DNA from: Antedon mediterranea
Lineage: Eukaryota > Animalia > Echinodermata
NCBI RefSeq assembly: GCF_964355755.1
Contig: NC_092678.1
Location: 22,771,365 to 22,835,364 of the forward strand
Direction: 5' to 3'
Length of the DNA: 64,000 bases
Shown: piece after piece, positions 3,997-56,866 of the stretch
How positions within the stretch are numbered: position 1 is the first letter of the stretch
How the letters are laid out: every line of letters starts with the position of its first letter
Notes under the pieces: model-generated
Told to the model about the DNA's origin: nothing
Databases searched by the model: none
The model's input: only the letters and a program-made list of their open reading frames with translations
Position numbers and translations under genes: made by a program

Positions 3997-6900
3997 TTAG
4001 TTTACATACACCAACTCTTCTATTTCAAATGTTTTGTGATTCCCTTCATTTCTTAAAACAAATTTTGTTATTAATGATGTTTTGTCAATCTTCGTAACGT
4101 CATTTCCATTGATAGATATCATGTCACTTTTGATCATTATATGATTTTTATAACATTCTCTTAGCATTTTATTTACAATAGTACCTGTTAAATTACAATC
4201 ATTCATAGAAAGATGTTTTAAGTTTGGAAATATAATAAATATATTAGCTAGTGTACTTCCGTTGAATGATGATAGGTTGAAGCCATCAAAATTAAGATTA
4301 TCCCATCTTAACCTATAACGACTAGGTGATATTAAAAGATCGTGTAATTGTTTAACTGACATATCACTTGGTATAATGTCTAATTTTTTCTTTACTTCGG
4401 TATCAATATCTGAAAGATCAATTCCTTCTAAGTTGATAAAAATGTCTTTTGGCTTTAGATAGTTTATATCTACTTCATTAAACATGTCACCTATTTGTTT
4501 GCTTGATAATCGAGAATTGGCCACTTTGAAAGTTTCTAAATCTTTGGAAGTGTTTAATATACGACCTAATAGAGATCCATTGATAAACTCCGGATTTTTG
4601 GTGTCGAGTCTAAAACTCTTCAATTTAACAAAAGCTTTACTATGTTCACATTCTTCTAACATTGTGTTAATATGTGAACCACCTATATTACAACTCATAT
4701 AACGTATGTTGAGCTCTCGTAAATTTGGAAAGTTTTGAATTAATTTACACATCTGTGAGTCAATTGTAGTGTTATATTCGAAGCAATCAATAGTCCACCA
4801 AAAATTATGTACTTCCTCACCAAAACGATATTTTTTCCATTCGTCTGAGAGGATTTTAAGAGCTTTATCACCCCATTTATGAAGTAATTGTATCAAAAAG
4901 ATGCTTCGATCTGCAAACTTATACAGATATCCTAATAAGATTTCAACGTGTGCTACTAACCTACATACATTATCAGATGACTCAATGTTTGATTCTTCTA
5001 TGATTGATATAGTTTTAAATATTCCTATTTCCCCCTTGTTTGTAAAATCATCTGCAAACAATTTCATTTGTTGAAATAAGTGCAAATCTTTTTCATATAA
5101 CAACTTAAAAGAATTTTTAAAATTGTCAACATGCATTTTCATTTCTGATGACATATGTTTATCCAATGATGTCAATACTTTTTGTTCGTGCTCTTGATTT
5201 ACATATTTAAAATACTCTAAAAAAGAGTAATAATTTGAGAGCCTATTTACCAACCAGTGTTTTATTAATTTATCTGCATTAGGACCTAGAAAACTAATAG
5301 TGAAAACTCTTGCCATGTGTAAATATTCGCTCGTCCTTAAGTTCTCGCATTCCTCAGATGTTAAAGTATCAATTTTGTTAGACAAGTAAAACCCGGCTAG
5401 CGCTTGTGACCATAACTTATGTGGACATCTGTAAGTCTCTACAGAATCATCCTGAACAGTAGGGTCATCTTTGTAAACAAATCCTATTTTCAACGATAAG
5501 TCAGCCAAAGTTTCATTTCTTACTAGTTCAAGTAATTGTATTTTAGTAAAATGAAGTTTATTTGTTTGTAAACCAATGTAACTTATTTTTCCTAATATTA
5601 AAATTGCATTTTTATAGTCAGTTGAAATGTTGTCAAAGTTGGATATCCGTTTTTGCTCATTACTTCTGTTAATGTACTGATTTAAAATGGAACGGAAGAT
5701 TTCTTTCAAAAAACGTTGAAAATCTTTTGTAATTATTTGTTCGTGTTGCCATATAACACACATTTTAAGTAATAAAAATGGGGATGAAAACAGTTCAAAT
5801 ACATTTTTGTGATCACCACCCCAATTATTTTTCACTGAATCAAGTTTGAATTCGTCAATCAATAACTGGCCCAGATTAGAGTTGAAATTGAAATGTCTAT
5901 TTATATATGGTTTTATGTTTTCTGTAGAGAATCCTTCTACTTTTACATATACATCAAAATGCCTACGTACACTTTCAGTAAAACCCGGTCGTGAAGTCAG
6001 AATAACTGTGCTGTCTTCCAATTCTTCTCTTTTTAGTATCAGTAGAATATCTACCCCAGATGTTAACTCATCTAATCCATCTATCAGAAGAACTAAATCT
6101 TTGTCGTATGTCTCTACAAAAGTTCTTATAATAGTTTCATTTACATAGATACCTGTTTTTTTACGAGATTTCTTCAGCTTAACTGAATCAACAATTAAAT
6201 CTGTGATTGTTTGTCCTTCTTTGATGTCTCTGAGGTTTACAAGAAATAATATTTTACCAGCAAACGTACTATCGTTATTTGTCGCCCAGTTATAAGATAA
6301 ATATTGAAGCAAGGTTGTCTTACCAATTCCACCATTTCCTACCATTAATACTTTACAGGAGTCTTTAGACTTTATAATATCCAATAATTCTTGTAATGAT
6401 GCGTCGACTTTTCTTTTTTCTATATGTAGTACTGGATCTGTGAACATCTGTGAAATGTCATACGGATGATTTTCTCCCCATGTTGGTGGTATTATATTTG
6501 GGTCTTCGAATTTTTTTCTCTGTTCTGCTGTTATGAAGTTTCGAATAAGCTGATCTGAAATGAAGACAATCTATGAAAGTATAAACCGAACAGGCTTTTT
6601 TTTTTGCAAATTTCAACGTTAGGTAGCGGCTATTAAATACTAATTTCATAATAGAAAATTAATAATAAACATTACCTTCTGTTAATTCGCAATCTGAAAA
6701 CCTGTTTGCAAAAACGTGGAATAAGTATGAGAGTATGACAGCTGAGATGACAACAATAAATGCAAAGACCATCGCTAAAGCTAAACAAATGTAAGGTATA
6801 TTTCAGGATTACTGAAGGGCATGCACGGTTTAAGTTCATTTGATGATTACTTTTTTTATTAAGTTATAGAAAAGATGCTTTTGAATACATTGCTTCTTAT

Positions 6901-8675
6901 TTTGATTTGTGGTAGGTCAATGTTACATTGTGAATTTATTTTACGATATTATTTATGCTTACCGATATGTGTACTTGGTTTAGATTTAGATTTCCTGTTA
7001 CCTGTAGGTTAGAAATAAAATTACAATACGTAACAAAATTAAAATCCCAATAAACGTCATTAACCCATGACGTCATTTACCCAAATAACGTCATTTACTC
7101 ATAACCAATACTATTATTTTTGTGTCTGTTGTGACACCATAGATCATTCTCTATGACTCTTTTTTCCAAGATGATGGAGTGGTTATGAAAAATATCGCAA
7201 TTGGATTTATGTTATAATGGTTTGCGCCACCTACGGGTCAATATCATCATTACATTATATGATAATGAATGGTGCATGTAGCTCACGTCACTGTATTGTG
7301 TTTCATACACATCTATCACAGTCTTACAGTATTTGTAGTTACATAATATTTGAATGTTCAATCCTTTTTCCCTATCTTGTTTAGTATTCACTGGATTTGA
7401 TAATGATGTTACTGGATAGGCTAAGCTCCATACCTGTAGAAATTGATATCGGTGTTGGTGTCGATGCTGAAGCCGATGTTTGAATAACTGTAGGCTGATA
7501 GGGTTTTGCTGATAGAAATACAAAAAGAAATCAAAATATAATATAAGTTTAAACTTAACCAACTAACTAAAAACAGGAACATTTTTAGATTATCTGAAAT
7601 TGCTGTACATATGGTTTTATGCTTCTTACAGTTATTTTTATGTTCTAGGCCTAAATTTAAATTTAAAATAAAATTTTAAATAAGTTAAAAAATTTTAACA
7701 ATTGCAACCATACCCACTGCACCCTTCTGTCACTGGCTAGTCTGCTACATACCTGTGGGAACTACCATTGTTGTAGCTGAAGCCGGTATCAAGGTAGGCT
7801 GATAGAATGTTGCTGTAAGTTATATTCATATGCACAAAAGAAATGAAGATATAAGTTTAAACTTCACCAAAATGTTACTAAAATTGAAATATACAGTATT
7901 TCCAGAAACTATAAAGACCCCATGAAAATCTTAAATAATTTAGTTTGAATTAATATCTTTGTTATTTTGAAATTATTATTTTCAAATAAATGCCATGGCC
8001 TTTGATATAGTTTAGTTGTTTAGAGGAAATACGCTCAAGCCATCATTGATTTTGCATGATGTACTACACGGTAAATCCGTGATTAATAATAAATATTATT
8101 ATTTTCTAAAACAAATTTAATGAGCAAATAAAAAAGAATCTCAATCGAGATGTGGTAGGCATACCCAGTAGAATATGTTGTGCTACATTGTTTAGTAGTT
8201 TTGCAAATATTTCAATTTGTTCTCGTGAATCCAAGTTTCCGTTTTTCTCAATGTGATATACAACATCCCAAATGTTGTCGTAGTTGAAGGCACACAGCTT
8301 GTAGAAATCAATAACATTTTGTAAGTCATTTTTGTCTACGTTAATAAGCGTTGTAAACAGTGCTCTGCGGTAGTTGGTTATTATTGTCTCTGATGTGTTA
8401 TTACTGCATTGTACAGTATTCTTGTATTCTGTTGTACAATTTATCGCTGATTCCTGATTAGTTACTTCAGCAATGTCCAACAACAGCCTCACATCAGTTT
8501 TTGAGATAAATCGATTGCGAGTAAGAGTATTAAATAGGCCCATGGCTGACTGATCTAGACCGCCAATAGGTATAATACCACATAGAAGCATTCTTAACTT
8601 CCTAACGTCCACGCCAGCATAGGATTTGCTAAGTTTTTCCAGAAACATTTGGTATTTAACATCATTTTCGTCCAT
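3997..8675 (-). CDS. NLR-like gene A: tandem DED-like - S/T/P linker - TM - NACHT - LRR (~1115 aa, 6 coding exons)
   Basis: Exons 8165-8675, 7753-7812, 7434-7508, 6963-7001, 6676-6780 (LAMVFAFIVVISAVILSYLFHVFA) and 3997-6554. All introns are GT-AG and phase 1, and the total is 3348 nt in frame. Walker A GNGGIGKTT, Walker B LLIDGLDE, sensor ILTSRP, LRR-like FPNLxxLxM repeats. Confidence 0.85.
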
Positions 8676-14200: not shown

Positions 14201-14840
14201 ATGTATCCTCCGTTTAGGCCTATATAATCAATATTATAAATTAAAATATAAAAATATTAAGGCCCGATAACGATCGACAATAAATAGATAAACGTTTTTT
14301 CTTACATAAACCAAAATAGATTCAAAAGTTATCCTATACTTCTAGGATAAACAATAGGCCAATATCAATAATAACAATAATATTTTTTTTCTAATTTTAA
14401 AATGTTTATACATACCCTGTATTTAAAATAGATACAACACCACAATAATTAGTAATTAGTTTATTAGAGCAACAGTAAGATTGTCTCCTGATACTTTACT
14501 TTAAAAAATACTACAAATAATAGATAAGATCATTGAATTATCATCGATATTCAGAAGGTAGTATTTAAACAGTGTAGGCGACATTTTGATTCAATATGCG
14601 AAACGCAAATACCGTAATATGTTATTTAAATAAATTTAGCCTAATTAATTATGACTGAAGGTAAATAGCAATAACAAGACCTACCCATAAGCAAATATAA
14701 ATGTTTAAAATTAATAATAGAAAAAGTGAAATGTATCCTCGTAAGAATAGAAGAAAAGTAGAAGATGTTATAGCTATAATTATAATTATTAAAACTTTAT
14801 ATACAATATTTAAAGGACGAAATAAATGCGCTTTAAATAT
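11278..14840. repeat. Recent segmental duplication of ~477-3990; older copy at ~51390-53310
   Basis: Almost base-identical, including the L1 insertion; the third copy lacks the L1. Confidence 0.92.
12255..13873 (+). mobile_element. Second copy of the same L1/Tx1 insertion (carried by segmental duplication)
   Basis: Near-identical to 1452-3022 with the same TSD (12238-12254, 13874-13890). GGA>TGA nonsense change at 13089-13091. Confidence 0.88.
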
Positions 14841-17800
14841 AGGTATACTAGTTTCTATATACCAACTGTAATAGTTCAAATCTTCTATTTCTAATGTTTT
14901 GTGATTCCTTGGCATTACTAAAGTTTTGTGATTCCTTGGCATTACTAAAGTTTTGTGATTCTTTGGCATTACTAACATTTTGTGATTCTCTTTAATTGCT
15001 AAAGTTTTGTGATTCCGTTCAATTGATAAAGTTTTGTGATTCCGTTCAATTGATAAAGTATTGTGATTCTCTTCAGTAGCTAAAATAAATGTTGGGATTA
15101 ATGATGTACTGTCAATCTTCGTATGGTCATTTCCATTGATAGATATTAGGTCACTTTTGATTATTATATTATTTTCATAACATCCACTTAGCATTTCCTT
15201 AACAATAATACCTGTTAAATTACAATTATTCATAGAAATACGTCTTAAGTTTGGAAATATAATAAATATATTAGCTAATGTACTTCCATTGATCGATGAT
15301 AGGTCAATGCCATCCAAAAAAAGACTATCCCATCTAAATCTATAACCACTAGGTGATATTAAAATATCGTGTAATTGTTTAGAAGACATACTATAATTAC
15401 CCCAAGTTTGGCTTTGAGGGCCCTGCCGTGTTTCTAATAAATCGATAATGTTTCCAAGTAATTCGGTATCAATATCTGAAAGAACATTTCTTTGTAATTC
15501 GATAAGATTTTGTTTTGACTTTAAATAGTTTATATCTACTTCATTAAATATGTCGACTATTTGTTTGCTTGATAATTGAGAATTCGCCACATTGAAATAT
15601 GTTAAATCTTTGGAAGTGTTTAATATACGACCTAATAGAGATCCATTGATAAACTCCGGATATTTGGTCTCGAGACTAAAACGCTTTAATTTAACCAAAG
15701 TTTTACTATGTTCACATTCTTCTAACATTGTGTTAATATTTGAACCACCTATATTATAACCCATATAACGTATGTGGAGCCCTTCTAAATTTGGAAAGTT
15801 TTGAATTATTTTGCAAATCCGTGAGTCAATAGTAGTGTTATATACGATGTGATCAATAAACCACAAAAATGTATCTACTTCCTCATCAAAACGGTATCTT
15901 TTCCATTCGTCTAAGAGGATTTTAAAAGCTTTATCACCCCATTTATTAAATAATTGTGTCATATACCAACTGTTTAGATTTTTAGACAGATATCGTAATA
16001 AAATATGAACGTGTGCTACTAACCTACATACATTATCAGATGACTCAATGTTTGATTCTTCTATGATTGATTTCATAGTTATATAATATATTCCTGCTCT
16101 CTCTAAGTTTGTAAAGTCATCTGCAAACAATTTCATTTGTTGGAATAAGTGCAAATCTTTTTCATATAGGGTCTTTAAAGAATTTTTAAAATTGTCAACA
16201 TGTATTTTCATTTCTGGTTGCATATGTTTATCCAATGACTTCACTACATTTTGTTCGTGCTCTTGACTTACATATTTAAAATATTCTAAAAAAGAGTAAT
16301 AATTTGAGAGCCTATTCACCAACCAGTGCTTCATTAATTTGTCTGCATTAGGACCTAGAAAACTGATAATGAAAACTGTTACCATGTGTAAATACTTGTT
16401 CGTCCTTAAGTTCTCGCATTCCTCAGATGTTAAAGTATCCCTTTTTTCCGACAAGTAAAACCCGGCTAGTGCCTCTGACAATAACTTATGTGGACATCTG
16501 TAAGTCTCCACAGAATCATCCTGAACAGTAGGGTCATCTTTGTAAACAAATCCTAATTCCAACGATAAGTCAACTAAAGTTTCATTTTTTACTTGTTCAT
16601 TTAACTTTCTTTTAGTAAAAAGAAGTAAGTTGTTATGTAAGCCAATGTAACTAATTTGCCCTAATATTACAATTGCATTTTTGTAGTCAGTCAAAATGTG
16701 GTCAAATTCTGGTATTGCTGTAGTAGTAGACTTGTTACTCCTGTTAATGTTCTGTTTTAAAATCAGACAAAATATTTCTTTAAAAAAATGCTGAAAATCT
16801 TTGGGAATTGTTTGTTTGTGTTGCCACACAGTACACATTTTAAGTAACAAAAACGGGGATGAAAGTAGTTGAAATATTTCCTTATGATCACCACCCCAGT
16901 ATATAGATTTAGAATCAAGTTTAAATTGATCTATTAATAACTGACCCAGTTTATAATTTCCAATATAATCAAAATATTTGTTTATATATGGCTTTATATT
17001 TTCTGCACTGAATCCCTTTATATTAACAAGTACATCAAAATGTTTTTCTACGCTATCCACTGTAGGACCAGGTCGTGAAGTAACAATGACCGTGCAATCT
17101 TCTAGTTCTTCACGTTTTATTATCATTGGAATATCTAGCCCAGAATTTAACTCATCATATCCATCCAGCAGAACTACACATTCTCGGTCATGTTTCTCTA
17201 TAAAAGTTTTTATAGATGTATTACTTACACGGGGATCTGTTTTTGCATTCACCTTAACCCTATTTATGATCATATCAGTGATGGTTTGACCTGCCTTGAT
17301 GTCTCTTACGTTTACAAGAAATAATATTTTACCAGCAAACGTATCATCGGAATCTATCGCCCAGTTATAAGATATGAATTGAAGCAAGGTTGTCTTACCA
17401 ATTCCTCCATTTCCTACCATTAATACTTTAGGTGAGTCTTTTGACTTTATAATACCCAATAATTCTTGCAAAGATGTGGGACTTTTTATTTTTTCTTCCT
17501 TTGTAGTAGTTTTTAAAACTGGATCTGTAAACATCTTGGAAATATCAACATAGTGTCCAAAATGTTCGGTCCACGTCGGTGGTCTCAATGTTGGGTCTTT
17601 TAATTTATTTGTCTGTGTTGCTGTTAAGTAGTTTCGAATAATATCATCTGAAATCAAGAAAGTTTGTAATTCATCTCGTGAAAAGCAAATATTACCTAAT
17701 AGGTTTGACCATACCATCAATATTTTAATATAGTACTCCTTTACATTTATTATCCAGCAAGTTCATGACCTTCTTACGCTCATTTGCCTCGTTTGAAGCC

Positions 17801-20800
17801 ATTGTAACAATTCTGATTTTTGACTCTCTTTTTTGTTCACACTACCACTGCGCATAATGTTTATACACTGCATAGCTAGAAAATCATCAAATTGTATTAT
17901 TATATACATACCATTATCCCCTTCTGTTAATTTGTGGTTTGTAGCTAGAATGACGGCAATGACCAGTACTAAAGTTGCTATAATGAAATACACAAAAGTA
18001 ATTTAGTTACAATTGCAGACATGAGACCGTTGCAAACTAAAAGACGCAGTTCTAGTCATTAATATAAGTATGTAATACGCTTCAAAATAAATAAATTATG
18101 TTTGATATTGTAAATTTATTGAAAATAAACATTAGTTGAGTTGTTACTGCTTGTACTTACCGAGTAATGGTATAGCCATAGATTCCAAGTTATGTTGATT
18201 TGTCACTGCATGTAGGCCTATAACTAAAATAAAAAATAAATGTATAATAGAAACTATTGTATATCATTAGGCGACTCTACTTCAACAACTGTGCAATAGC
18301 AACTGTTATATAAAAAGGATACATCTGATTAGAATAAATCATTATATAAAAAGAGAATAACAAAATGTACGTATTACGTTTCAAAGAAAGGTATTTTTTT
18401 TGTTAACACGCCTGCTCGTGTTCTTGCAATTTGATTGGTCAATTAGGCATCACGTGTCATTTGGAAGTAGCCCTATCTCATAGAAAAGTGATATTTAATT
18501 GCGATAATGTACGGCTCTATTCACGTTCAGCTTTCTGTAAACATTTTGATAATGTTTGTTGACTGATCGTGTTTATCTGTTCTACTCTGCTTCTAAAGTT
18601 GGAACACTGCCTTTTTTAATGGCCTAGCTTCACGCTAGAATTCGTCAATGATTTAAGATGGATAACTTGAATAAAAGTAGGTGTTTTATAAAACAAATAA
18701 CTGATGTTTTGTATTCGTTATATGGGAAGAATATTTCATGTCCACCTCGTTAAATAGTCAATTTAGTCATGAAATATTCTACCATTCAACTCATAAACAT
18801 TAATTATTTGTATACGTCTATACATTGAATATACAATAACTATTTGTTTTTTAAAAACTTTATTGTTGTTTTCAATACAGCCACATTGTTTTGTGATTCA
18901 TAAACAATTCAGTTAACTCTTGTACTTACCAAAGTCTACAAAAGAAAAAAAAACTCTTGTTAAATGTTAAAAATGATGTCACATCATCCATAACATTAAC
19001 AATGACATTTGAAATATAATATTTTTATTTTAAAAAGTTTTTAAACAGCTGTTTGTAATCATTAGGAGTAGACAATTATAAGATTGTTGTATTACATGTA
19101 AAAAAACCCAACTCAAATCAATCTGTAACGAAAATATCACATCTATAATAAATTCTTTAAAAAAAAATATAGGCCTATTTAGGCCTACACCTAAATATTC
19201 AGAATTTTTAGGTTTCATACAATGTATTTTATATAAATCTATTGAGATAAAGTATATTCTTTACGAGGATAAAACAATATTATATTAAGATTGTGTTATC
19301 ATTACTGTTTAACAATGTAAAAAACCAAACTAAAATATCGCGGACCGGAAAATTATGATTTTGAAATGTATCAAATTCAATAACCAAAAAATAGCAATAC
19401 GGCTTTACCACGTTGAAACACCGGTTCTCGTCAGATCACCGAAGTTAAGCAACGTTGGGCCTGCTTAGAGCTTGGATGGGAGACCATCTCTGGGAATATT
19501 GGGTGCTGTATATGGAGCTGGGGTCCCGTTAGGCATTTGAAATCAGCACTGCTGACTCTTATGGCAGCTCCTGCATCTAGTATCTGCCTCAGACTATTGA
19601 CTTATGCCTTTCCTCTGGTCAAGGTGGGCACTGGACGAGAGAAGCCCTTGATCAATGTTAGGACCAATCAAGGTGCTTTAAACTGTCCTGGCTTTGTTTG
19701 TATCAAACCTGTTAGTGGCGGTAATTATCTGTTGGTTTCGATTGAATAAAATAAAAAATAAAATAAAAGTGTGTTTATACTTTATTGCGATTTATTCCTC
19801 AGTGGAGAAAATAAAATATTAGGATTGCTGTATCGTTACATTTTAAGAGGCTTAAATGTAAAAAAAAATATTTAAAAAAATAAATAAAAGGTCATGGACG
19901 TGAGAATTATAAGTTTGAAATGCATGTATGACATTAATAAACAATATTAATAAACATATGTTGAGACACAAAATGAGTCTAATGTTGTTATTCATAATGC
20001 TTACCGTTATATATCCTGTTATCCGATCGAAGTGACACTGTAGGTTAGAAATTAAAAAAATTCAAAATCTCAAAAATACATTTACCACAACCACTAATTG
20101 TATACTGTGTTGATTCTTAATTTATTGTGAATAATTTGTTATTTTGAACAACAAAGTGAAACACTCTTAAAGATGTATTGTCCCCCAAAAAATGAAAAAT
20201 GAAGGTTAATTAAATCAGACTTTGAATATGTTATTTTTTAGTTTTAATAAAGTTAATCACTTCAGTAGAAAAACAATGAAACAAAATAATGTTTTCACTT
20301 ATAAAATGACAAAATAAATATGTCATAGATATTATTGTTGTTTAGTTAATTATAATGGAATGAATTTATTTCCATCGTTTGAATTACTTACTGTTATTTA
20401 CATCGACAGAATTGATTAAATGGTTGAATCCATTTATTCTTAACATCTTAATGAATTCCTTCATGTTTTCTTCCGAGAGAATCATGTTTCGTTCAAAATC
20501 CATGATCAAACTCCAGCTATCTTTATATGATTTTAGCATTGTTTCTCTGTAAATATGACTTAACCTTTTTTTTTCACTCTTTGTCATGTTTTGCCCAAGT
20601 CGTATTACACTCTGTCTGTATTCACTAAATGCCAAAGCTCTCTCTTCTCTGCATGGGCGTAGGCATACCATTTTTAAATCTGTTTGTTCATATATTTCCT
20701 CCCAAACGCCATCCTGTTGTGTTATAGTTATGGTATCGTATATAAGAGTGGGATTGTTGTGATTCAGTCCTTTATGTGTATACAACAAGTTTAGCAATTC

Positions 20801-21716
20801 CATCATTGACGAAGCGTTCTCTAGTCTACCTTTGTCAGGCACCAAGTCTTCGTACAACACTTTAATCATCTTGATTGGGCAAAATTGGTCAAACCAATTT
20901 GCCACAGTAATTTTCAACTTTATGAATTGATTTTCTGTTAAGGCTGTTAAAGTAAAAATACATGTCATTGTGTTCTTTTGTTTCTAATATTTGTATTATG
21001 ATAATGTGAGATATTTAAGGTCAAAGGTGACTTTTATGTAACATTTGATGTCTCATAACTCCTCAACCCCTGGGTTTAAAAGGATAAATGAAGTGTCATT
21101 AGGAGTCACAAAAATAAATACAACTTTTGCAACTTTTTAATAATTCCATTGGTCAGATATACAAGGTCAAGGGTCAATGACCTTTATTTAGTATATAATG
21201 GCTCATAACTCTTTAACAACTGCACACAAAAGGACGAAAGTGTTCCTGAATCGGTTTTACTGACCACATATATTGTTTGTCTATTTGTGACTTTTACAGC
21301 CAGAGATATTACAGGCAGTCATATAGGATTTTGGCCGCCATTTTGGAAGATCGAAAGCTGATTGGGTGGCTCCCAGGCAAAACTCAATTAGTAGGACTAA
21401 GAGAAGCCCCATGCCAAATTTGGTGCCACTCGCCTTAATCACTATTAATGTCCATTTTCACAAATGGAATTAACATCTAATTGATTTAAATGTAAATTAT
21501 TGAAAAATAATAATGAAACTGCCTTTCCTTTCAATATATAGGTCTATAAATAAAGTATGGTGTAATCGTCCGTAATTTCATGCTTATTCTTTACTCCATG
21601 ATAAATCTAAGGAAAGTTAAACCAGTGGCGTTTTACACTGATTATTTCCTAACAGTACCGGGATCTCGTTTTTTTACTTATGTTTAGTATATTTTACCTG
21701 TTTCTGTTCCTTCCAT
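14649..21716 (-). CDS. NLR-like gene B: DED-like - microexons - TM - NACHT - LRR - 9-aa repeats - 2-TM tail (~1245 aa)
   Basis: Exons 21698-21716 (MEGTET), 20392-20943, 20005-20037, 18930-18935 (6 nt), 18161-18223, 17912-17977 and 14649-17647, all phase 1. The TM MAIPLLATLVLVIAVILAT spans two exons. Motifs GNGGIGKTT and VLLDGYDE; C-terminus has two hydrophobic stretches. Confidence 0.8.
19394..19768 (+). mobile_element. 5S rRNA-derived SINE (SINE3-type)
   Basis: 19394-19512 is a diverged 5S rRNA sequence (taccacgttgaaacaccggttctcgtc.gatcaccgaagttaagcaacg...ttggatggg...gggtgctgta), followed by a ~230-bp non-5S body and an (aataa)n tail. It lies in a gene B intron. Confidence 0.85.
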
Positions 21717-24805: not shown

Positions 24806-27800
24806 TTATTCGTTCAACTTGGTGGTTTTAAGAATTGTGTGACGAACAACCATGATATTTTTGAATATTTTCGATGGAAAAACAGGCGTATCGTACATAG
24901 TTATCGTTATATCAACATCATGTGGGCCTTCTGTCGGTAATTTACCGCCGACTGAAAGCTTCCCATTTTCTAGCCGCATGACTTGCCGCTGTATCGTGCT
25001 GTACTGTAAGAGCGCCTGCAGGTTCTCAATTGAATCCAATGAGTTAAAATCAGTAAATAAAACGAGTTCTAATCTCATAATAAATGTCCTGCCAGATGCT
25101 GGACTGTTATCTATTTTTAATGTTTGGTTATTGTGTTCATTTTCAAAAACAAATAAAGGAATTATTGCGTTGTCATAAAGTTTAACATTTGGTTTTAAAA
25201 CTGTTAAATTGTCTTTATTTATTGCCCCCATTTTATAACATTCACTTAGCATGTCTTTAACTATTTTACCTTTTAAATTACAACCATTCATAGAAAAACG
25301 TTGTAAGTTTGGAAATATTATAAATATTTTAGCTAGTGTACTTCCGTTTATTGATGATAGGTCGACGCCTTCCAAATTAAGAGAAAACTTTTCAAATCTG
25401 TAACGCCTTGGTGAGCTTAAAAGATCATGTAATTGATTTGATGATAAATTATGCAGACCCCAATTTAATTCAAATCCCAAAAATGAATTTATAATGTTCG
25501 CAAGTAAATCAATACTAATTTTTGAAAGATCATTTAGCTCTAAATTCATGAAAATATCTTTTGATTTTAAATAGTTTAAATCGATTTCATTTAGCATATC
25601 GACTGTTTGGATACTTGACATATTACAATCTTGCAAATTAAAGAATTGCAAATCTTTAGAAGTATTTATTATGTGACCTAATACAGTACCATTTAAACAG
25701 GTAAGATTGTTACCCCTGAGAGCAAATACCTTCAATTTAGGAAATGTTTCACTGAGTGTACATTCATTTAACATTAATTCAATTCGCTGACAATCCAGTA
25801 AATTGCTTATGGTGAGAATTTCTAGGTTACGAAAGTTTTTTAAAAAATTGCAAAGCTGTGAGCCGTTTATTATAAACCTGGGTTCAAAGCTTGCATGAAA
25901 TGCAAAGGAACGTATTTCCTCACCTAAAGAGTATTTCTTCCATTCTTCTGAAAGAATTGCAATAGCCTTATCCCCCCATTTCTCAATTAGAGTTATCAAA
26001 TATTTATCACGCTTCATTGGTATGGCTTGAAGGGATGACTCGTCTTGATGTAATTGCAATATAATCGAAATGTGAGCTACAAATCTGCACACATTTTCAA
26101 ATGTATGTTTATTCGATTCTTTTACCAACGACGTGATACCAGCTAATAATTCCCTCTTCTTTTGTGTTTTACACACATTTGACATCCACTTCAGTAGTTG
26201 TAAAAAGTGCAAATTGTTATCATCAATAAACTGTTTAAAGGAATTATTTAACCTTTCAAAATGTATTTTCATTTCTGGAGAGGTATGTTTATCCAATGAT
26301 TTCAAAACCTTTTTTTCGTCTGATTCATTCACATATTTAAAATATTTTGAAAATGAGTAATAATTTGACGCCTTATTCTCCAACCAGTGTTTCATTAGTT
26401 TGTCGGCATTGGGACCTAAGAAACTAATAGTAAAAACTCTTACTATGTGTAAATACTCGTTCGTTCTTATTTTCTCGCATTCTTTGGAATCAAAAGTTTC
26501 AATTTTGTCAGACAAGTAATACCCGGCTAGAGCTTCTGAAAATAACCTATCTGGAAAACTGTAAGTCTCTAAAGTACCAAATTGAACAGTAGTAGAGTCA
26601 TCTTTGTAAACAAATCCTAAATTTAGCGAGAAGTCAACTAAAGCTTCATCTTGTTCTATTTCGTTTAATTCTGTTTTCGTAAAACGAAGTACATTGTTTT
26701 GCAAACAAATGTACTGTAACTAATGTGTCCTAATATTAGAATTGAATTCTTATACTTAGTCGGAATCTTGTCAAAGTATGCTATGGTATCTTCTGTTTTA
26801 TTTATGCTGATGTGCTGATTTAAAATTGAAAGAAACATGTGTTTAAAAAAAATCAGAATATTTTGGGGGATCTTTTGCTCGCTTTCCCACATAATACACA
26901 TTTTACGTAATAAAAATGGAGATGTAAGAAGTTCAAATATTTCTTTATGTTCACCACCCCAAGTATTTGTATCAAGTGAATCAAGTTTAAGTATGGTAAT
27001 CAATGTCTGACCCAGTTCAGGCTTTCCAATTATTTCGAAATATCTTTTTATATATGACTTTATGTTGGTTTTATCAAATCCTTTCTTCACTTTTACAAAT
27101 ACGTCACAATGTCTGTGTAAACGCTAAGTAAATGAAACTGGTCGTGAAGTCAGAATAACTGTACTGTCTTCCAGTTCTTCACGTTTTAATATCATTGAAA
27201 TATCTACCCCAAATTTTAATTCATCTAATCCGTCTATTAGAAAAACTAATTCTCTGTTGTGTTTCTTTATATAATGTTGTATACTTGCCTGCTTACTTAC
27301 ACATAGATCTAACTTCAACTGAACTCTATCAACGATTATGTCTGTGATGGTTTGACCTGGTTCGATGTCTCTGGCGTTTACAAGAAATAATATTTTACCG
27401 TCAAACGTAGCATCAGAATCAGATGCCCAGTTATAAGATATGAATTGAACCAAGGTTGTCTTACCAATTCCCCTATTTCCAGTAATCAATATTTTAGGTG
27501 AGTCTTTGGACTTTATAATAGACAATAATTCTTTTAATGATGTGCCCATTCTTTTTCCCCTCTCTATGATATAAAGCTCTGGTTCAGTAAACATCTCAGA
27601 AATATTGTAATATGTATCTCCTCTGTACATTGGTGGTCTTAGGCATGTGTCGTTCAATTCCCTTTTCTGCTCCGCTAATATCAAATTTCGAATAGTTTCT
27701 GAAATAAAAAAAAGCAAATAAATTGTGCCTATATAAACTATTAGAAACATATAAAATAAGAAACAAATACTCAAAATAAGACGCAAATTATTGTAATGTT

Positions 27801-42559: not shown

Positions 42560-42762
42560 TATTTTATTCCATTCTTTTTTCATCTGAAAACAATTAAAGT
42601 TAAAACTATTGCCACTAATGTATTTAAGACAACTACCTAAAATGTACGTAAATGTACCTTCATTTCTGGAGGGATACACTTTTTCGTGTTCTTTTACAAT
42701 TTAAGATATTTGAGAATGAATAATAATGATGTGATGCCCTAATTACCAACCAGTGTTTCATG
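42560..42762 (-). pseudogene. Decayed NACHT-LRR exon fragment fused to a DED exon
   Basis: An alternative frame reads MKHWLVIRASHHYYSFS and nearby PPEMKVH, matching MKHWLVNRASNYYSF...SPEMKIH of the paralogous NACHT exons. Confidence 0.7.
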
Positions 42763-45700
42763 AATTTTCTTGATTTTGCATGGTTCATTAGCTAGTACTT
42801 CAATTTCTAATTTAAAAACGACATTCCAAATATTTTGTAAGTTATGATGTTTTAGGTTGTAGTAAGAAACCAAACGTTTTAATGCATCTGGATGAACTTG
42901 TCTCATGGCTTTAAACAGTCGCTTCCGATCATCTGACAACATTGTATCATCATCAATATATTGAAGTCTGTTGTCCTTCATATACTGTCTTATAAGATCT
43001 TCGGCAGGCTTCACTTCTGTTAGCTTCGTAATCTCTAATAGCAGACTTACATTAGTAGGTGTGATTAAGCCTTTTAATTCAAGTGCATTAAACAAGTCAT
43101 TTCCAATAGCATCTGTAGTATCACTAACACTTAAATAGTCAATTAGACAGAATCTTAACCAATAATATCTTTCACCCTCATAATATCTACTGAGATCAGC
43201 ATTCATGGTTTTAAACTTTATTTTAGATTCTGTAATTTTACTGTATTTTATTGTGTCTGCAAAAAAACAACAAATTGTATACATTAATTAATTCTTAATT
43301 CTACATTAATTCTTCTATTTCTGGTTAAAGGTCTTGATCGTATTAAACGGCATACACAAACAGGAGAAATAATATACAAAAATAATAACAGTACTGAGAT
43401 CAGCGTTAATTGTTTGAAACGAACTGAGTTGATGCATACATTACGTCACAAATGTCCGTATTGCGTCAACTAGTATGGCTCACTGACACTCGACGCAGCT
43501 CTCTCATGTCGTAGGCCTACTGTGTCGTAGGCTTAAACTTAACATTTTTTGTGTCTATCGCGCTAAAATTGAGGTTTTATTGTTGGAAATGCTATTAGAA
43601 GTCTATAAATATCATATTTCGTTAAATTAACACTTTGAATTGACAGGTCTTGGTAGGTCTTGGTAGGTCTTGGTATTTAGGAAAACCCGTTTGAACGGTT
43701 TGGGATTTGTCAATGAATTGTGCTGTGTCTAAATTACATTACATACGGTATACAAATTATTAGTCGCGTGCAACGCGACTCCACAGCTCACTATGTCGGT
43801 CGGTTAGTCGGTTGGTCGGTCGGTAAACACTAACTTGAGCACGCGACTGCAGCCATGTATATGCCATAGCCATAGGGATTTAGTTCCCATTTGCGTTACC
43901 TGCGACTAACTTTGTGGTTGTTTTGTTGTTGGCAATAAACAATAAGAATTAATGTGAAAATTAATAGTTACCTACCATAATCACTTTCCGTTAATTTGCG
44001 ATCCAAAACAAAACATGAGAATATGTTAGGAATAGCTATTACGATTGCAATGACCAGTGCTAAAACTATTAAGGAAAAAACAAACATTTATCAAAGTTAA
44101 TTGTGAAGTTTCACTCCAAAATTGTAGATTAAAGTACAATAAAAAAAGAACAAATTAGTAATTCATAATTATGATTAATTCACAGTATGAATTGCTTTTT
44201 ATGATTGATAGTGAATTTATCGAAAATAATTATAAGTTTTTATGATCAACACTTACCTGTACATATGGCTATAGGCTTCTTACATGATGAAGATATCCAG
44301 TTATGTTTAACTTGTTCTAAATTTAAATTAACAAAATAAAATTCTAAAATAAGTTAAAATATTAATATAAATTTTAAATCATAGTAAGCAACCAAATTCC
44401 AAATTTATTCCATAGCTAATTCTTCTTCATTAAATTATGATTAATTAGATTTTGATATTTTTGTAATTACTTTCACACGGTCATTATTATTATGTATCAG
44501 TTAGGAAATGTATTCTTAACTTCCTCAGCTACCCACAGGTGATGATTGTTCTTTGTAATTCAATACAATAAAATACTTACTATTATTACGCGTTCCTTTG
44601 CCTATAAGAATAAAATTAAATATCAAATATGTATTATGATTAAAACTGATCTAAATAATTCAGTTGATTTTTGATGAACATTAATCAGGTTTGATCTATT
44701 GATAGAGTTGCATCAATTTTATAATATATCTCCAATATATATAAACATATCTCCAAAAAAGTTGGAGATTTTTCATTAAATTTAGATAACAAAGCTAAAA
44801 TTTAAGGCCCTATTTCAGGATTACAGAGCATGCATGGTTTAAGTTCATTTGATGATTACTTCTTCTTCTTTTTTTATTAGTTATTAGAAAAGAAAAAATA
44901 AATTAAAAGAGGCTTTTGAATACATTGCATAACATAGGTCAATGTTACATACACATTTACGATATTCTTTATGCTTACCGAAACGTGTAGGCCTAATTGG
45001 TTTACATTTATATTTCCGGTTACCTGTAGGATAGAAATAAAAATACAATATGTAACAAAATTCAAACCAAAATAATGTCATTAACCCATGACGTCATTTA
45101 CCAAAGAACGTCATTTATCCATAACCAATAATATCATTTTAGTCTCTGTTGTGACACTATAGATCATTCTCTATGACTGTTTTTTTTTTTCAAACATGAT
45201 GGAGCGGTTATGATTTATTTTGTAATGGTTTGCGCCACCTACAGGTCAATATCATCATTACATTATATGATAATGAATGGTGTACGAGTAGCTCACGTTG
45301 TTTTGTGTTTCATACATCTATCTTACAGTATTTGTAGTTACATAATATTTGAATGTTCAATCACAGAAAATGGAGTCTCATCAAGCCCTTTTCCCTCTCT
45401 TGCACCCGTGCACCCCAATGTTTAGTATTCACTAGATTTGTTAATGATGTTACTAGATAGGCTAAGCTCCATACCTGTAGAACAATATTGTATTGTTTTC
45501 TAAAACAAATGTAATGAGTAAATAAAAAAGAAGCTCTTTATCGAGATTGGTAGACATACCTAGTAGAATATGATGTGCCACATTGTTTAGTAGTTTTGCA
45601 AATATTTCAATTTGTTGTTGTGAATCTAAGTTTCCGGCTTTCTCAATGTGATATACAGCATCCCAAATGTTGTCGTAGTTGAAGGCACTCAGTTGATAGA

Positions 45701-46070
45701 AATCAATCACATTCCTTAAGTCATCTTTGTCTACGTTAGTAAGCGCTGTAAACAGTGCTCTGCGGTAGTTAGTTATTATTGTCTCTGATGTGTTATTACT
45801 GCATTGAACAGTATTCTTGTATTCTGTTATACAATTTATCGCTGATTTCTGATTAGTTACTTCAGCAATGTCCAACAACAGCCTCACATCAGTTTTTGAG
45901 ATAAATCGGTTACGAGTAAGTGTATTAAATAGGCCCATGGCTAATTGATCTAGATATCCAATAGGTATAACACCATATAGAAGCATTCTTAACTTCCGAA
46001 CTTCAGTGCCAGCATAGAGTTTGCTAAGTTTTTCCAGAAACATGCGGTATTTAAGAACATTTTCGTTCAT
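42739..46070 (-). CDS. Chimeric locus E: DED-like - basic linker - TM - second DED-like module, no NACHT (~414 aa; may be a pseudogene)
   Basis: Exons 45560-46070 (close paralog of the gene A first coding exon), 44979-45023, 44581-44601, 44257-44316, 43976-44065 (VLALVIAIVIAIPNIFSCFVL) and 42739-43256 (paralog of the gene D DED exon). GT-AG, phase 1, 1245 nt in frame. Confidence 0.6.
43761..43871 (+). mobile_element. Minimal HINE-related element
   Basis: tagtcgcgtgcaacgcgact hairpin, cactatgtcggtcgg core and cacgcgact subTIR are shared with the larger HINE family. Confidence 0.6.
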
Positions 46071-50131: not shown

Positions 50132-50529
50132 ATAACAATAACACGTGAAGTAAAATATTTTAAAGAGACAATAAATTATAATCTTAAATAAGAGTTTAAA
50201 TGTTTAAAAAAAAATAACATTTTAAAATATAAGACCAGAATAGTTTATTTATTTAGATAAAATCGAGAATGGTAAATATTTTGTTCATGATACGTTGAGA
50301 TTTTAGGTACAGTATTAAAATATTTGCTAATACATTTTTTTTTTAATAGACCGATTTCTCTTTATTTTTCTTCTGAGTTATCAAGGCTATTCTATTACAC
50401 AAGTTTTTCGGTGTTAACATAAAGTATTTATTATAATTATTAAAATTAACTCTTTATTTAAAATTACCAATTAAAATCGGTAAGTCACAGTTTGTAAATA
50501 TAATTAATGTACTTTACTACATTCTCAGA

Positions 50530-50818
50530 AAATCATCGCGAGACCATTCTCCGCCAATCATCGCGAGACCATTCTTCTCCACCAATCATCGCGAGACCAT
50601 TCTCCGCCAATCATCGCGAGACCATTCTCCGCCAATCATCGCGAGACCATTCTCCGCCAATCATCGCGAGACCATTATTCTCCGCCAATCATCGCGAGAC
50701 CATTCTTCTCCGCCAATCATCGCGAGACCATTCTTCTCCGCCAATCATCGCGAGACCATTCTCCGCCAATCATCGCGAGACCATTCTCCGCCAATCATCG
50801 CGAGACCATTCTCCGCCA
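50530..50818. repeat. 25-bp minisatellite, paralog of 10340-10571
   Basis: About 11 tandem units with occasional 3-bp insertions. Confidence 0.9.
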
Positions 50819-53122: not shown

Positions 53123-56100
53123 TTAATTAGTTATGACTAAAGGTACAAAACATAAGAAAATATAATGGTTAAAATTAATAATAGAAAAAGTGAAATATAT
53201 CCTCATAAGAATAGAAGAATATAAGAAGATGTAGCTATAATTATTAAATATATTAAAACTAACTTTATACAAAATATTTAAAAGACGAAATAAATGCGCT
53301 TTAAATATAGTTTTACATTTAGTTTCTATATACCAACTGTAATAGTTCAACTCTTCTATTTCTAATGTTTTGTGATTTTCTTCAATTACTAAAACAAATG
53401 TTGGGATTAATGATGTACTGTAAATATTCGTAATGTCATTTCCATTGACAGATATCAGGTCACTTTTGATCATTATATGATTTTTATAACATTCACTTAG
53501 CATTTCATTTACAATAGTACCTGTTAAATTACAATTATACATAGAAAGATGTGTTAAGTTTGGAAATATAATCAATATAATAGCTAGTGTACTTCCGTTG
53601 ATTGATGATAGGTCAATGCCATCCAAAATAAGATTATTCCATCTAAATCTATAACGAGTAGGTGATATTAAAAGATCGTGTAATTGTTTCGCTGACATAT
53701 AATACCTGTCCCAAGTATCATACAGTTTGTATAATGTCTAATTTTTTCTTTACTTCGGTATCAATATATGAAAGATCAATTCCTTCTAAATTGATAAAAA
53801 TGTCTGATGATGTTAGATAGTTTATATCTAGTTCATTAAACATGTCACCTATTTGTTTGCTTGATAATTGAGAATTCGCCACAATGAAAGTTTCTAAATC
53901 TTTGGAAGTGTTTAATATACGACCTAATAGAGATCCATTGATAAACTCCGGATATTTGGTCTGAGACTAAAACTCTTCAATTTAACAAAAGCTTTACTAT
54001 GTTCACATCCTTCTAACATTGTGTTAATATGTGAACCACTTATATTATATTCCATATAACGTATGTGGAGCTCTTTTAAATTTGGAAAGTTTTGAATTAA
54101 TTTGCAAATCTGTGAGTCAATTGTAGTGTTATATTCGAAGGAATCAATAGTCCACCAAAAATTATGTACTTCCTCACCAAAACGATATTTTTTCCATTCG
54201 TCTGAGAGGATTTTAAGAGCTTTATCACCCCATTTATGAAGTAATTGTATCATACACCTACTGTTTCGACTTTGATCCAGATATCGTAAAAAGATTTCAA
54301 TGTGTGCTACTAACCTACCTACTTTACCAGATGACTCAATGTTTGATTCTTCTATGATTGATAATATAGTTTTAAATATTACCCGCTTGTTTGTAAAATC
54401 TGCAAACAATTTTATTTGTTGGAATAAGTGCAAATCTTTTTCATATAGCAACTTAAAAGAATTTTTAAAATTGTCAACATGCATTTTCATTTCTGATGAC
54501 ATATGTTTATCCAATGACTTCACTACATTTTGTTCGTGCTCTTGATTTACATATTTAAAATATTTTGAAAGCGAGTAATAATTTGAGGCCCTGTTTACCA
54601 ACCAGTGTCTCATCAATTTGTCTGCATCGAGACCTAGAAAACTAATGGTGAAAACTCTTACCATATGTAAATACGCGTTCGTCCTAAATTTCTCACATTC
54701 CTCAGAATCCAAAGTATCAATTTTGGTAAACAAGTAAAACCCGGCTAATGCTTCTGACAATAACGTGTGTTGATATCGATAGGTGTCCACATAATTATCC
54801 TGTACGATAGGATCTTCTTTGTAAACAAACCCAAAGTTTAGCAATAAGTCTACTAAAGTTTTATTTTTTGTAAGCTTATTTAATTCTGTTTCAGGAAAAG
54901 ATACTAAATTATTCTGTAAACTATTGTAACTAATGTTTCCTAATATTAGAATTGCATTTTTATACTCACTCGGAATTTTGTCGAAGTCTGTTACTGCGTT
55001 TGTAGTATCAGATCTGCCGCTGTATTGATTTATAAAGAAACGAAATATTTCTTTAAACAAATTTTGAAAATTATCTAGGTTTAGTTCTTTGTGTTGCCAC
55101 ATACTACACACTTTAAGCAACAAAAATGGTGATGAAAATAGTTCTAATATATATTTGTCATCACCACCCCAAAGATCTCTAGAATCAGAATCAAGTTTAA
55201 ACTTCTCAATTAATTTCTGACCCAGTTCTGGCTTTTCAATAGATTGGAAATATCTGTTAATATAGGGCTTTATGTTTTCTACATCGAATCCTTCCACTTT
55301 TACATGTACGCCATAATATTTATGTAAATGTTCAGTAAATCCCGGTCGTGAAGAAAGAATAACTGTACTGTTTTCCAATTCTTCTCTTTTTAATATCATT
55401 GGAATATCTACCCCAGATGTTAACTCATCTAATCCATCTATCAGAATAACTAATTCTTTGTCGTGATCTTCTATAAACGTTTTTATAATTGTTTGATTGA
55501 TATGGAGACCTATTCTACGAAAATGTATTAGTTTAACTTTATTAACTATTGTATCTGTGATAGTTTGACCTGGTTTGATGTCTCTGAGGTTTATGAAAAA
55601 TAATATTTTACCAGCAAACGTCATGTCAGAATTTTTCGCCCAGTTATAAGATATATATTGAAGTAATGTTGTCTTACCAATTCCCCCATTTCCAGTAATC
55701 AATACCTTACATGATTCTCTGGACTTTATAATACCCAGTAATTCTTGTACAGATGTGTTCTTTTCTTTATTCTCTACAGTAGTGTATAGTACTGGATAGG
55801 TAAACATCTGGGAAATATTATAAGTTTCAAAATGTGTTCTCCATATCGGTGGCCTTATCATTTCGTTCTTTAACGTTTCTTTCTGTTGTGCTGTTAAAAA
55901 TTTTCGAATAGTCTTATCTGAAAACACACAAAAAGAGAATATTATCTGTTGAAACACATATTAAATCTGAACGTGGAAAATAGTGAGCTTTATTGAAATC
56001 ATAGTTACAAATACATACCTTCATCACTTTCTGTTAATTGTGTATCCGAAACTTGGCTTAAGAAACTGTTGAGTACGATGCCAATGATGATGATCAGCAG

Positions 56101-56866
56101 TACTACTAATAAAATTATGATTTTTTTTTAATTGAAAAAAACAATATAAATGTAGACAATATCCACAACTCAAAAGTTTAACAATATTAACATCATTAGA
56201 ATATATACAAATACAAAGAATAATAAATAAAAATGTTAAAATCTAAATATAATTTCAATAAACTGTAAATATTCCAAACCATAATCTTTGTCACAACCAA
56301 AATACTGTATAATCAATTCTTTCTTCATTATGATTATAAACAGGAATAATACTCAAATATTGTTAAATAAGTTAATAAAAACATAATATTTAGTAGGTGC
56401 TAATTCAAAATATTGGCTAATATTGTCTATGACACTGAAAAATAATTTTTTTTTATGTTACTTGTGTCCCAAAATGCCTTATATACTGGCCTTGATCAGA
56501 CTGAGTTCGTAAGCAATGCAGAAAGCATGACATTAATTTATTTACCTCTTTTATTGAATACCGGTGCTTGTGCCGGTGCTTGTGCCGGTGCTTGTGCCGG
56601 TACTTGTGCCGGTGCTTGTGCCGGTGCTTGTGCCGGTGCTTGTGCCGGTGCTTGTGCCGGTGCTTGTGCCGGTGCTTGTGCCGGTGCTTGTGCCGGTGCT
56701 TGTGCCGGTGCTTGTGCCGGTGCTTGTGCCGGTGCTTGTGCCGGTGCTTGTGCCGGTGCTTGTGCCGGTGCTTGTGCCGGTGCTTGTGCCGGTGCTTGTG
56801 CCGGTGCTTGTGCCGGTGCTTGTGCCGGTGCTTGTCCCGGTGCTTGTCCCGGTACTTGATCTGCTG
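53123..56866 (-). pseudogene. NLR-like locus F: (QAPA)n linker - TM - NACHT - LRR, frameshifted in the LRR
   Basis: Exons 56546-56866 ((APAQ)n...FNKR), a possible 24-nt exon near 56462-56485, 56019-56105 (VLLIIIIGIVLNSFL) and 53123-55917. There is a 1-nt deletion near 53960 relative to gene B and a second shift near 53725. No DED exon found upstream. Confidence 0.75.
56561..56858. repeat. Coding 12-bp VNTR (tgtgccggtgct)n, ~25 copies
   Basis: Near-perfect tandem array inside a GT-AG-bounded exon of locus F. Confidence 0.9.

Follow-up and report, generated by a model that had tools for sequence, protein, structure and literature searches.

Can an NLR place its sensor on one side of a membrane and its death signal on the other? 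NLRs are regarded as the cytosolic arm of innate sensing, in which sensor, ATPase switch, and effector share a compartment. The question is raised by a stretch of 64,000 nucleotides from the crinoid Antedon mediterranea (hereafter the window), in which an initial annotation had seen six paralogs, here genes A to F, each with a small hydrophobic exon that might separate a death-fold effector from NACHT. Our analysis of the sequence supports an architecture in which a tandem death-effector domain (DED) is followed by one hydrophobic helix and by NACHT-LRR, and the same predicted order recurs in other crinoid gene models. The exons of the five genes that carry NACHT are as follows (P0001 and similar designations denote proteins of the family).

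3997..6554, minus strand: gene A NACHT-LRR exon (Pfam NACHT 1.9e-19)
6676..6780, minus strand: gene A predicted transmembrane exon (splice borders, hydropathy, match to P0001)
6963..7001, minus strand: gene A basic (K/R-rich) micro-exon, immediately before the hydrophobic exon (similar peptide in P0161)
7434..7508, minus strand: gene A S/T/P-rich linker exon (similar peptide in P0161 and P0002)
7753..7812, minus strand: gene A putative S/T/P-rich linker exon, phase 1-1 (AG..GT in the sequence)
8165..8675, minus strand: gene A tandem-DED exon, from ATG, with a phase-1 donor (Pfam DED E 1e-4; frame open)
14649..17647, minus strand: gene B NACHT-LRR exon with two hydrophobic segments at its end (Pfam NACHT; frame open)
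17912..17977, minus strand: gene B predicted transmembrane exon (splice borders, hydropathy)
18161..18223, minus strand: gene B putative linker exon, providing the start of the hydrophobic run
20005..20037, minus strand: gene B putative linker micro-exon
20392..20943, minus strand: gene B tandem-DED exon, internal, with a phase-1 acceptor (Pfam DED 2.9e-7)
24806..27698, minus strand: gene C NACHT-LRR exon, its frame broken near 27124 and 26719 (Pfam NACHT)
27868..27987, minus strand: gene C predicted transmembrane exon (splice borders, hydropathy)
29155..29229, minus strand: gene C putative basic linker exon
30809..33645, minus strand: gene D NACHT-LRR exon, with hydrophobic segment(s) at the C-terminal end (Pfam NACHT 3.5e-19)
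33833..33901, minus strand: gene D predicted transmembrane exon (splice borders, hydropathy)
34527..34682, minus strand: gene D putative acidic linker exon with a 33-nt repeat inside
35034..35559, minus strand: gene D tandem-DED exon, from ATG (sequence comparison; frame open)
53126..55917, minus strand: gene F NACHT-LRR exon, carrying a stop (53924-53926) as well as frame breaks in its LRR part (Pfam NACHT)
56019..56105, minus strand: gene F predicted transmembrane exon (splice borders, hydropathy)
56546..56866, minus strand: gene F putative linker exon with a 12-nt repeat (Gln/Ala/Pro-rich) and basic residues at its end

All six hydrophobic exons lie where the initial annotation had placed them, on the minus strand between an AG acceptor and a GT donor and in phase 1-1; their lengths in A to F are 105, 66, 120, 69, 90, and 87 nt, each divisible by 3, so that the frame is kept. 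Their GC content is 0.33 to 0.39, versus 0.16 to 0.29 in the 100 nt upstream. As a control for chance, 122 candidate small exons from the six strand and phase classes of the window were passed through a hydrophobicity filter: strongly hydrophobic peptides came from 3 of the 122, all three being called exons (A, B, and E), and the called exons of C, D, and F did not pass this filter for strong hydrophobicity. We rejected chance hydrophobicity of AT-rich introns as an explanation. The segments had been described as about 18 to 24 aa long; they are hydrophobic, but the uncharged runs measure 17 to 26 aa and often begin in the preceding exon. The exon of gene A matches residues 36 to 75 of the Antedon RefSeq protein P0001 at 77.5% (E 2.7e-11).

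As annotated, the next exon in five genes (A, B, C, D, and F) is the NACHT exon, in phase 1 (Pfam NACHT E 1e-13 to 1e-19). The proposed in-frame splice from the DED exon to the transmembrane exon in A, B, and D holds insofar as the reading frame stays open all the way from the DED exon through to the stop, but the junction is not direct, with one to three small phase-1 linker exons intervening. Exon joining in the window models was deduced by reading the splice sites and by comparison with homologous gene models; in one sequencing run, introns were covered and no splice joints were found among the matches listed, which has no bearing on splicing. An assembly artefact is unlikely, with DNA contigs spanning the compared regions and RefSeq models from other crinoids showing the same domain order. 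The count of six NLR paralogs has to be reduced: A, B, and D give intact NLR models, although the window lacks the first exon of B, while C and F are broken and E is devoid of NACHT. No exon upstream of the tandem-DED exon of B, which matches the second DED pair of P0002 at 62%, and no DED exon for C or F was found in the window. Gene C is probably a pseudogene or a broken allele; its break near 27124 was unchanged in two sequencing runs, and a third run had one contig with some additional letters at this point. Duplications and one deletion are evident in the array, with two of the six genes broken. A two-segment hairpin had been reported at the end of B and D; the pair is clear in B, but the second segment of D is short, and gene A retains only an out-of-frame remnant of such a pair after its stop.

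That the N-terminal exon encodes a death fold was borne out by a profile of five DED exons, which matches the caspase-8 prodomain (E 7e-5), and Pfam DED scored above its cut-off in P0002 and P0161. The dN/dS of the DED exon, 0.39 to 0.45, indicates purifying selection. AlphaFold gave a poor model of the DED exon of A alone (pLDDT 54), and a fold search with this model returned weak matches (E 0.1 or worse), DED proteins holding the top 44 ranks among the matches listed. In the AlphaFold model of P0003, a DED pair predicted with confidence is followed by a disordered linker, then by a single helix of 27 residues (199-225), and finally by a beta-sandwich and NACHT. The best folds for this model were NLRC4 and NOD2, matched over ∼780 columns (E 1e-16), consistent with C-terminal LRRs, and an ESM Atlas search with its residues 1-600 gave no usable match. 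The LRRs are few and degenerate, with Pfam matches weak in the window and above the cut-off in P0004. The clade alignment shows intact Walker A, Walker B, and sensor-1 motifs, with the winged-helix His retained in most rows.

The hydrophobic segment also occurs in nine RefSeq models from two crinoids (Antedon and Anneissia). In a tree of NACHT sequences, the 13 rows with the segment group together in a single clade (98/89), which is nested within a set of 38 soluble NLRs, and all clade members on the tree have it; the exon was thus gained once. Every member examined has one hydrophobic segment before Walker A. The peak 19-aa hydropathy in this region was 2.35 to 3.62 in 15 models and at most 2.09 in 41 others, a clean gap and not an independent test, since the groups are defined by the same trait. 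Additional modules lie between helix and NACHT in P0010, with two six-cysteine EGF domains (Pfam EGF 1.3e-12), and in P0003 and P0007, with FN3; they were found in 3 of the 58 family proteins scanned and in none of the soluble ones, the EGF case being one automated gene model and the FN3 being equally close to titin and NCAM. The soluble crinoid DED-NACHT-LRR NLRs (RefSeq, Antedon mediterranea and Anneissia japonica) share the NACHT family and similar tandem-DED exons but have no hydrophobic segment before NACHT, twice the core cysteine, and no EGF or FN3 insert.

How would such a protein sit in the membrane? The positive-inside rule, the behavior of signal anchors, and the disulfides of EGF domains are the basis for arguing orientation. 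Hydropathy and the structure model both give an internal helix without a cleavable signal peptide, as in a type II protein, and hydropathy and inspection found no signal-peptide-like stretch in eight models that begin in the DED. The charge difference across the helix, calculated as C minus N, has a negative sign in 13 of 14 models, i.e., the N-side is more positive; D is opposite (+4.5), five models are weak (−1 to −1.5), and charges around the C-terminal segments indicate mixed orientation. Cysteine makes up 1.10% of the NACHT core in the membrane clade versus 2.14% in soluble relatives (12 versus 38 proteins) and 2.08% versus 3.48% of the next 250 aa (10 versus 36), whereas the DEDs preceding the helix show no such reduction (1.50% versus 0.99%). 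Three soluble proteins also have just 5 cysteines, no new conserved cysteine pair was found in the membrane clade, and a literature search on cysteine loss after relocalization gave nothing useful. Clade-specific NxS/T columns were present in 8/12 membrane versus 1/38 soluble proteins, 6/12 versus 0/38, 5/12 versus 0/38, and 4/12 versus 0/38. The sequon excess over composition was not significant (54 seen versus 45.0 expected, z 1.5), and it was absent from both Anneissia members (1 and 2 sites) and after the core (1.38 versus 1.42 per 100 aa). Since the clade has a single origin, the cysteine and sequon contrasts represent one event, and the p-values exaggerate them. The intact ATPase motifs are expected of a cytosolic ATPase and thus count against a type II orientation, and the DED-side linkers of A (S/T/P-rich) and F (Q/A/P-rich) resemble extracellular stalks. 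The xxEL C-terminus of P0001 and P0020 was considered as an ER-retention signal and set aside as a poor fit to the usual KDEL pattern.

Gene E departs from this scheme, with DED pairs on both sides of the helix, a feature missed in the initial annotation. Its exons are as follows.

42739..43256, minus strand: gene E second tandem-DED exon, downstream of the hydrophobic exon and terminated by a stop (89% to P0161)
43976..44065, minus strand: gene E hydrophobic exon, which includes an internal Pro-Asn (splice borders, hydropathy)
44257..45023, minus strand: gene E three basic linker micro-exons, 45023-44979, 44601-44581, and 44316-44257 (matching linker in P0161)
45560..46070, minus strand: gene E first tandem-DED exon (recently duplicated from that of A)

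Here the hydrophobic exon splices in frame to a second tandem-DED exon, giving a tDED-TM-tDED protein that lacks NACHT and is not an NLR. The 3' end of the second DED exon merges into an out-of-frame remnant of a NACHT exon (42675-42767, self-BLAST), and E may be a regulator produced by a deletion in the tandem array. The same order is found in the Antedon ortholog P0161 (XP_071960776.1), with identities of 89% in the second DED pair, 66% in the first, 50% in the linker, and 70% in the hydrophobic exon. A simple span would place the second DED pair of E in the lumen, and this is the best evidence against such a span. The annotated placement on opposite faces of a membrane is the default and most likely reading, and a span that separates DED from NACHT in one orientation or the other is somewhat more probable than not. 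The initial annotation did not choose an orientation; the evidence, chiefly the charge bias, the EGF or FN3 modules following the helix in relatives, and the restriction of cysteine loss to the part behind the helix, points to the type II form, with DEDs cytosolic and NACHT-LRR luminal or outside, for which we see an even chance.

Our working model is that a clade of crinoid NLRs gained a small exon encoding a hydrophobic helix between tandem DED and NACHT-LRR. This predicted signal anchor would keep the DED pair in the cytosol and expose NACHT-LRR to the secretory lumen or the cell exterior, where ligand binding by the LRRs and nucleotide-dependent oligomerization of NACHT would cluster the helices. 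Clustered helices would in turn crowd the cytosolic DED pairs and seed a DED assembly of the FADD/caspase-8 type, in the manner of a death receptor, and in B, D, and some relatives the hydrophobic segments near the C-terminus might re-tie the far end to the membrane. We advance this tentatively as the best explanation, in which we infer splicing, membrane insertion, and orientation, and clustering at a further remove. On a bolder reading, which we consider less likely than not, one exon would have turned a cytosolic NLR into a surface or endomembrane death receptor, whose complete, ATP-binding NACHT-LRR ectodomain, possibly oligomerizing with luminal or released extracellular ATP, signals through the helix to cytosolic caspase-8-like DEDs.

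The segment could instead be a one-sided anchor, hairpin or re-entrant, leaving DEDs and NACHT-LRR both in the cytosol as an ordinary DED-NLR tethered to an organelle or the plasma membrane. This would preserve the normal NLR mechanism with no new assumptions and accommodate the intact ATPase motifs, the nonsignificant sequon excess, the conserved DED pair that follows the segment in E and P0161, and the Pro-Asn within the segment of E. We hold it to be rather unlikely, given that most segments comprise 17 to 28 uncharged residues, lack a central proline, and are acidic or neutral on the C-side, that the segment is modelled as a single straight helix, that the EGF pair of P0010 follows it, and that cysteine loss is limited to the part after it. 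A single span in the opposite sense, with the DED pair outside or luminal and NACHT-LRR cytosolic as in AjNLRC4, is very improbable: the folded N-terminal part of 170 to 400 aa has no signal peptide in front of it, the charge bias of 13 of 14 models is opposed, the EGF domains would become cytosolic, and soluble relatives have closely similar DED pairs. It would keep the ATPase and the conserved second DED pair of E in the cytosol, and it would suit the stalk-like DED-side linkers of A and F and the charge bias of D.

The survival of the frame upon skipping in all six genes, together with two broken genes and the duplications and deletion in the array, would also suit an optional cassette or relic. 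The working product would then skip the phase 1-1 exon and be a soluble DED-NLR, the membrane form being minor, a decoy, or degraded. We judge this improbable in view of the inclusion of the segment in 9/9 RefSeq models in or tied to the clade, the lack of a clade member on the tree without it, and the retention of its hydrophobic character across two crinoid genera.

If the type II orientation is true, a working STAND ATPase switch would function beyond the cytosol and pass its signal through a membrane to death-effector domains. The sensor would then lie outside while the death signal stays within the cytosol, the reverse of the usual NLR build. The designs of NLRs and death receptors would be joined, and the single published claim of an extracellular NACHT would gain independent support. 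The soluble sister genes constitute a built-in control. Even a one-sided anchor would define an overlooked clade of membrane-tethered NLRs, present in RefSeq as "uncharacterized protein".

Death receptors share the proposed principle, in that clustering outside brings cytosolic death-fold domains together. Their orientation is type I; they carry a signal peptide, a death domain, and ectodomains rich in cysteine, and they have no NTPase; the crinoid genes show no homology to them beyond the death fold. Membrane NLRs are already known, as the initial annotation had stated, from descriptions of anthozoan proteins (PMC3879445, PMC5094078) and of the sea cucumber proteins AjNLRC4 (PMC8699970) and AjNLR-new (PMC13133943). 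Like the crinoid genes, the anthozoan NLRs are described as membrane bound with transmembrane segments upstream of NACHT, but their 3 to 5 N-terminal segments are the N-terminal domain itself and do not separate a death fold from NACHT (PMC3879445, PMC5094078), whereas each crinoid member has a single segment before Walker A. In AjNLRC4 of Apostichopus japonicus, according to the available text, a transmembrane segment immediately precedes NACHT, as in the crinoid genes, but Ig lies outside and NACHT inside, opposite to the orientation suggested here, and CARD and LRR are absent (PMC8699970). Pfam scans found no Ig domain in the crinoid genes and their relatives, which have DED and LRR, unlike the Ig-TM-NACHT receptors of the sea cucumber. 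The initial annotation knew of no description of this architecture; our literature search found no death-fold effector across one helix from NACHT in the texts available, but an extracellular NACHT has been claimed for AjNLR-new of A. japonicus from prediction, antibody localization, and binding assays (PMC13133943). This protein is likewise an echinoderm NACHT protein with transmembrane segments, reported to carry Ig domains between two of them and to act in phagocytosis through fidgetin (PMC13133943). Compared by description, the available account of AjNLR-new includes no death-fold domain or LRR (PMC13133943), whereas the crinoid genes have one helix, with a tandem DED before it and NACHT-LRR behind it.

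The DED-helix-NACHT arrangement is real and conserved across crinoids. All six small hydrophobic exons proposed by the initial annotation for the minus-strand paralogs A to F were borne out, with AG..GT borders, lengths that are a multiple of three and phase 1-1 in 6/6, and their GC content exceeds that of the upstream intron. Among 122 candidate small exons in the window (two strands, three phases each), only three are strongly hydrophobic, all of them called exons; the remaining three called exons failed to pass the filter of that scan. The hydrophobic exon of A matches an Antedon protein at 77.5% across 40 residues. The reading of the N-terminal exon as a death fold also holds: a profile of five DED exons finds the caspase-8 prodomain at E 7e-5, with 148 of 169 positions matched. 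The DED exon lies upstream and in frame in A, B and D, as first proposed, but does not adjoin the hydrophobic exon: one to three extra phase-1 linker exons, which are S/T/P-rich, acidic or basic, intervene. We infer exon joining throughout the array; the spliced models run uninterrupted end to end, at 1115 aa for A, 1195 aa for D and, without its first exon, 1237 aa for B. The description of all six paralogs as NLRs needs amending, since E has no NACHT and C and F are broken copies with frame breaks and no DED exon within the window. Sequence at 63012-63282 resembles that of the linker introns in A and E, which suggests that the upstream exons of F have either been lost or are located past the end of the window.

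The array stands in AT-rich animal DNA, a minus-strand tandem series of NLR-type genes that is interrupted by retroelements. Its other features are as follows.

37457-40943, plus strand: LINE between E and D, near-complete and frame-shifted, with a PHD-finger ORF, endonuclease and reverse transcriptase
47331-49897, plus strand: second LINE, with reverse transcriptase and an ORF1-like frame without a Pfam match
19395-19514, plus strand: 5S rRNA-like sequence (Rfam, 71 bits), intronic in B and very deeply covered by contigs
14881-15084: in-frame minisatellite, 27-nt unit, after the LRR in a coding exon of B
34554-34680: in-frame minisatellite, 33-nt unit, in a linker exon of D
56561-56858: in-frame minisatellite, 12-nt unit, in a linker exon of F

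The 5S-like stretch probably forms the head of a SINE derived from 5S. The minisatellites of B, D and F alter spacer length beside the membrane segments. A direct duplicate of 2.1 kb (476-2608 and 11279-13410, 99.4% identity), which contains a LINE end (zf-RVT), lies downstream of genes A and B and marks a very recent segmental duplication.

For the NACHT exon of D, the best 15 of 19 protein matches come from Antedon mediterranea or Anneissia japonica (30-57% identity), which points to a crinoid (feather star) origin of the window. A profile run against 1.84 billion representatives gave a block of very strong matches (E < 1e-84) followed by a drop. Nine RefSeq models carry the hydrophobic segment. 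The DED-helix-NACHT order is complete in P0020, P0002 (with two DED pairs), P0003 and P0007; P0001, P0004, P0010 and P0011 have a short or partial N-terminus, and the ninth, P0161, is tDED-helix-tDED. In a NACHT-core tree rooted on eight outgroup rows, which omits the 6 of 57 family proteins without a full core, the 13 segment-bearing rows fall into a single clade, with bootstrap 98 and SH-aLRT 89 and present in 99% of bootstrap trees, that sits inside a set of 38 soluble rows; those soluble members with a species name are all (13/13) from the same two crinoids. This places a single gain of the exon ahead of the Antedon-Anneissia split, for which phase-1 exon shuffling would be the simplest route. 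Among the soluble sisters, P0021 (Anneissia) has a cytosolic OTU protease domain ahead of NACHT, in place of EGF or FN3, and P0014 and P0048 (Antedon) have N-termini that resemble TIR on visual inspection, without a Pfam match at E 0.001. The outgroup protein P0070, a remote NACHT protein in which four hydrophobic segments precede Walker A, is unrelated to the membrane clade in this tree.

AlphaFold models P0003 (mean pLDDT 74) with a confident DED pair and, after a linker of low confidence, a single helix spanning 199-225 (pLDDT in the 60s); a beta-sandwich, also of low confidence, and then the NACHT module follow. The folds closest to this model are those of NLRC4 and NOD2. Membrane and soluble groups alike keep Walker A, Walker B and sensor-1. 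Purifying selection acts on the DED pairs and NACHT cores of the window paralogs (dN/dS 0.35-0.51), and a 100-codon stretch near the LRR start of A, B and F gives 1.3-1.5, as point estimates on low dS.

As to which side of the membrane each part occupies, our preferred reading, to which we give about even chances, is a type II receptor, with cytosolic DED pairs clustered by an oligomerised, exported NACHT-LRR. Insertion of a long, uncharged helix that follows a folded N-terminal domain leaves the N-side of the helix in the cytosol; a signal peptide is absent in 8/8 DED-starting models, and the charge bias agrees in 13/14. The exception is D, whose opposite bias would fit a reverse span, a reading that we consider improbable. 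EGF domains require an oxidising compartment, and in P0010 the helix is followed by two EGF domains of six cysteines each, albeit in a single automated gene model; FN3 follows the helix in P0003 and P0007, its likeness to titin equalling that to NCAM. Neither domain occurs in soluble proteins among the 58 proteins scanned. Cysteine is halved in the NACHT core of the membrane clade (1.10% vs 2.14% in soluble members) and lower in the 250 aa after it (2.08% vs 3.48%); the DEDs before the helix show no such drop. Four sequon columns are almost exclusive to the clade, but sequons exceed the number expected from composition by a non-significant factor of 1.20, and the excess is absent in Anneissia members and in the part after the core. 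Because the clade has one origin, these compositional shifts count as one event.

The weightiest point against type II comes from gene E (42739-46070, minus strand), in which the hydrophobic exon joins a second tandem-DED exon in frame; the end of that exon runs into an out-of-frame fragment of a NACHT exon, suggesting a deletion. The Antedon protein P0161 (XP_071960776.1) has the same tDED-helix-tDED layout. It also reproduces the linker of E, with the region of a 21-nt micro-exon that had been predicted beforehand from the window alone, and this one protein appears under two RefSeq accessions, a pattern that at NCBI usually marks transcript-based variants. Between E and P0161, conservation peaks in the DED pair behind the helix (89%), which is hard to explain in a luminal location. 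E may have changed topology, having Pro-Asn inside its segment, or may act via an exon-skipping form. It may also show that both sides of the segment are cytosolic in all members, as expected of a one-sided anchor holding DED and NACHT-LRR in the cytosol; this reading, with the EGF domains of P0010 against it, we rate a minority possibility. An optional or relic hydrophobic exon is a further reading, and a rather unlikely one. E itself is possibly a deletion-derived, membrane-bound DED adaptor or cFLIP-like regulator. In the type II receptor, the exported NACHT-LRR would oligomerise, its oligomers would cluster DED pairs on the cytosolic side, and these would seed a FADD/caspase-8-type assembly. 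Such an inside-out NLR working as a death receptor is plausible, unproven and held only tentatively.

A literature search conducted mostly at the level of abstracts returned no DED-helix-NACHT protein and no paper on crinoid NLR architecture, and the portion of PMC11508797 covered holds nothing further on membrane forms. NLRs with a DED or death domain are described as common in echinoderms (PMC8913654). Membrane NLRs are described in anthozoans, with three to five N-terminal segments (PMC3879445, PMC5094078), and in a sea cucumber, where AjNLRC4 has NACHT inside and Ig outside (PMC8699970) and AjNLR-new is claimed, as a first report, to have an extracellular NACHT (PMC13133943). By this search of limited depth, the DED-helix-NACHT protein of crinoids is a new form of membrane NLR.
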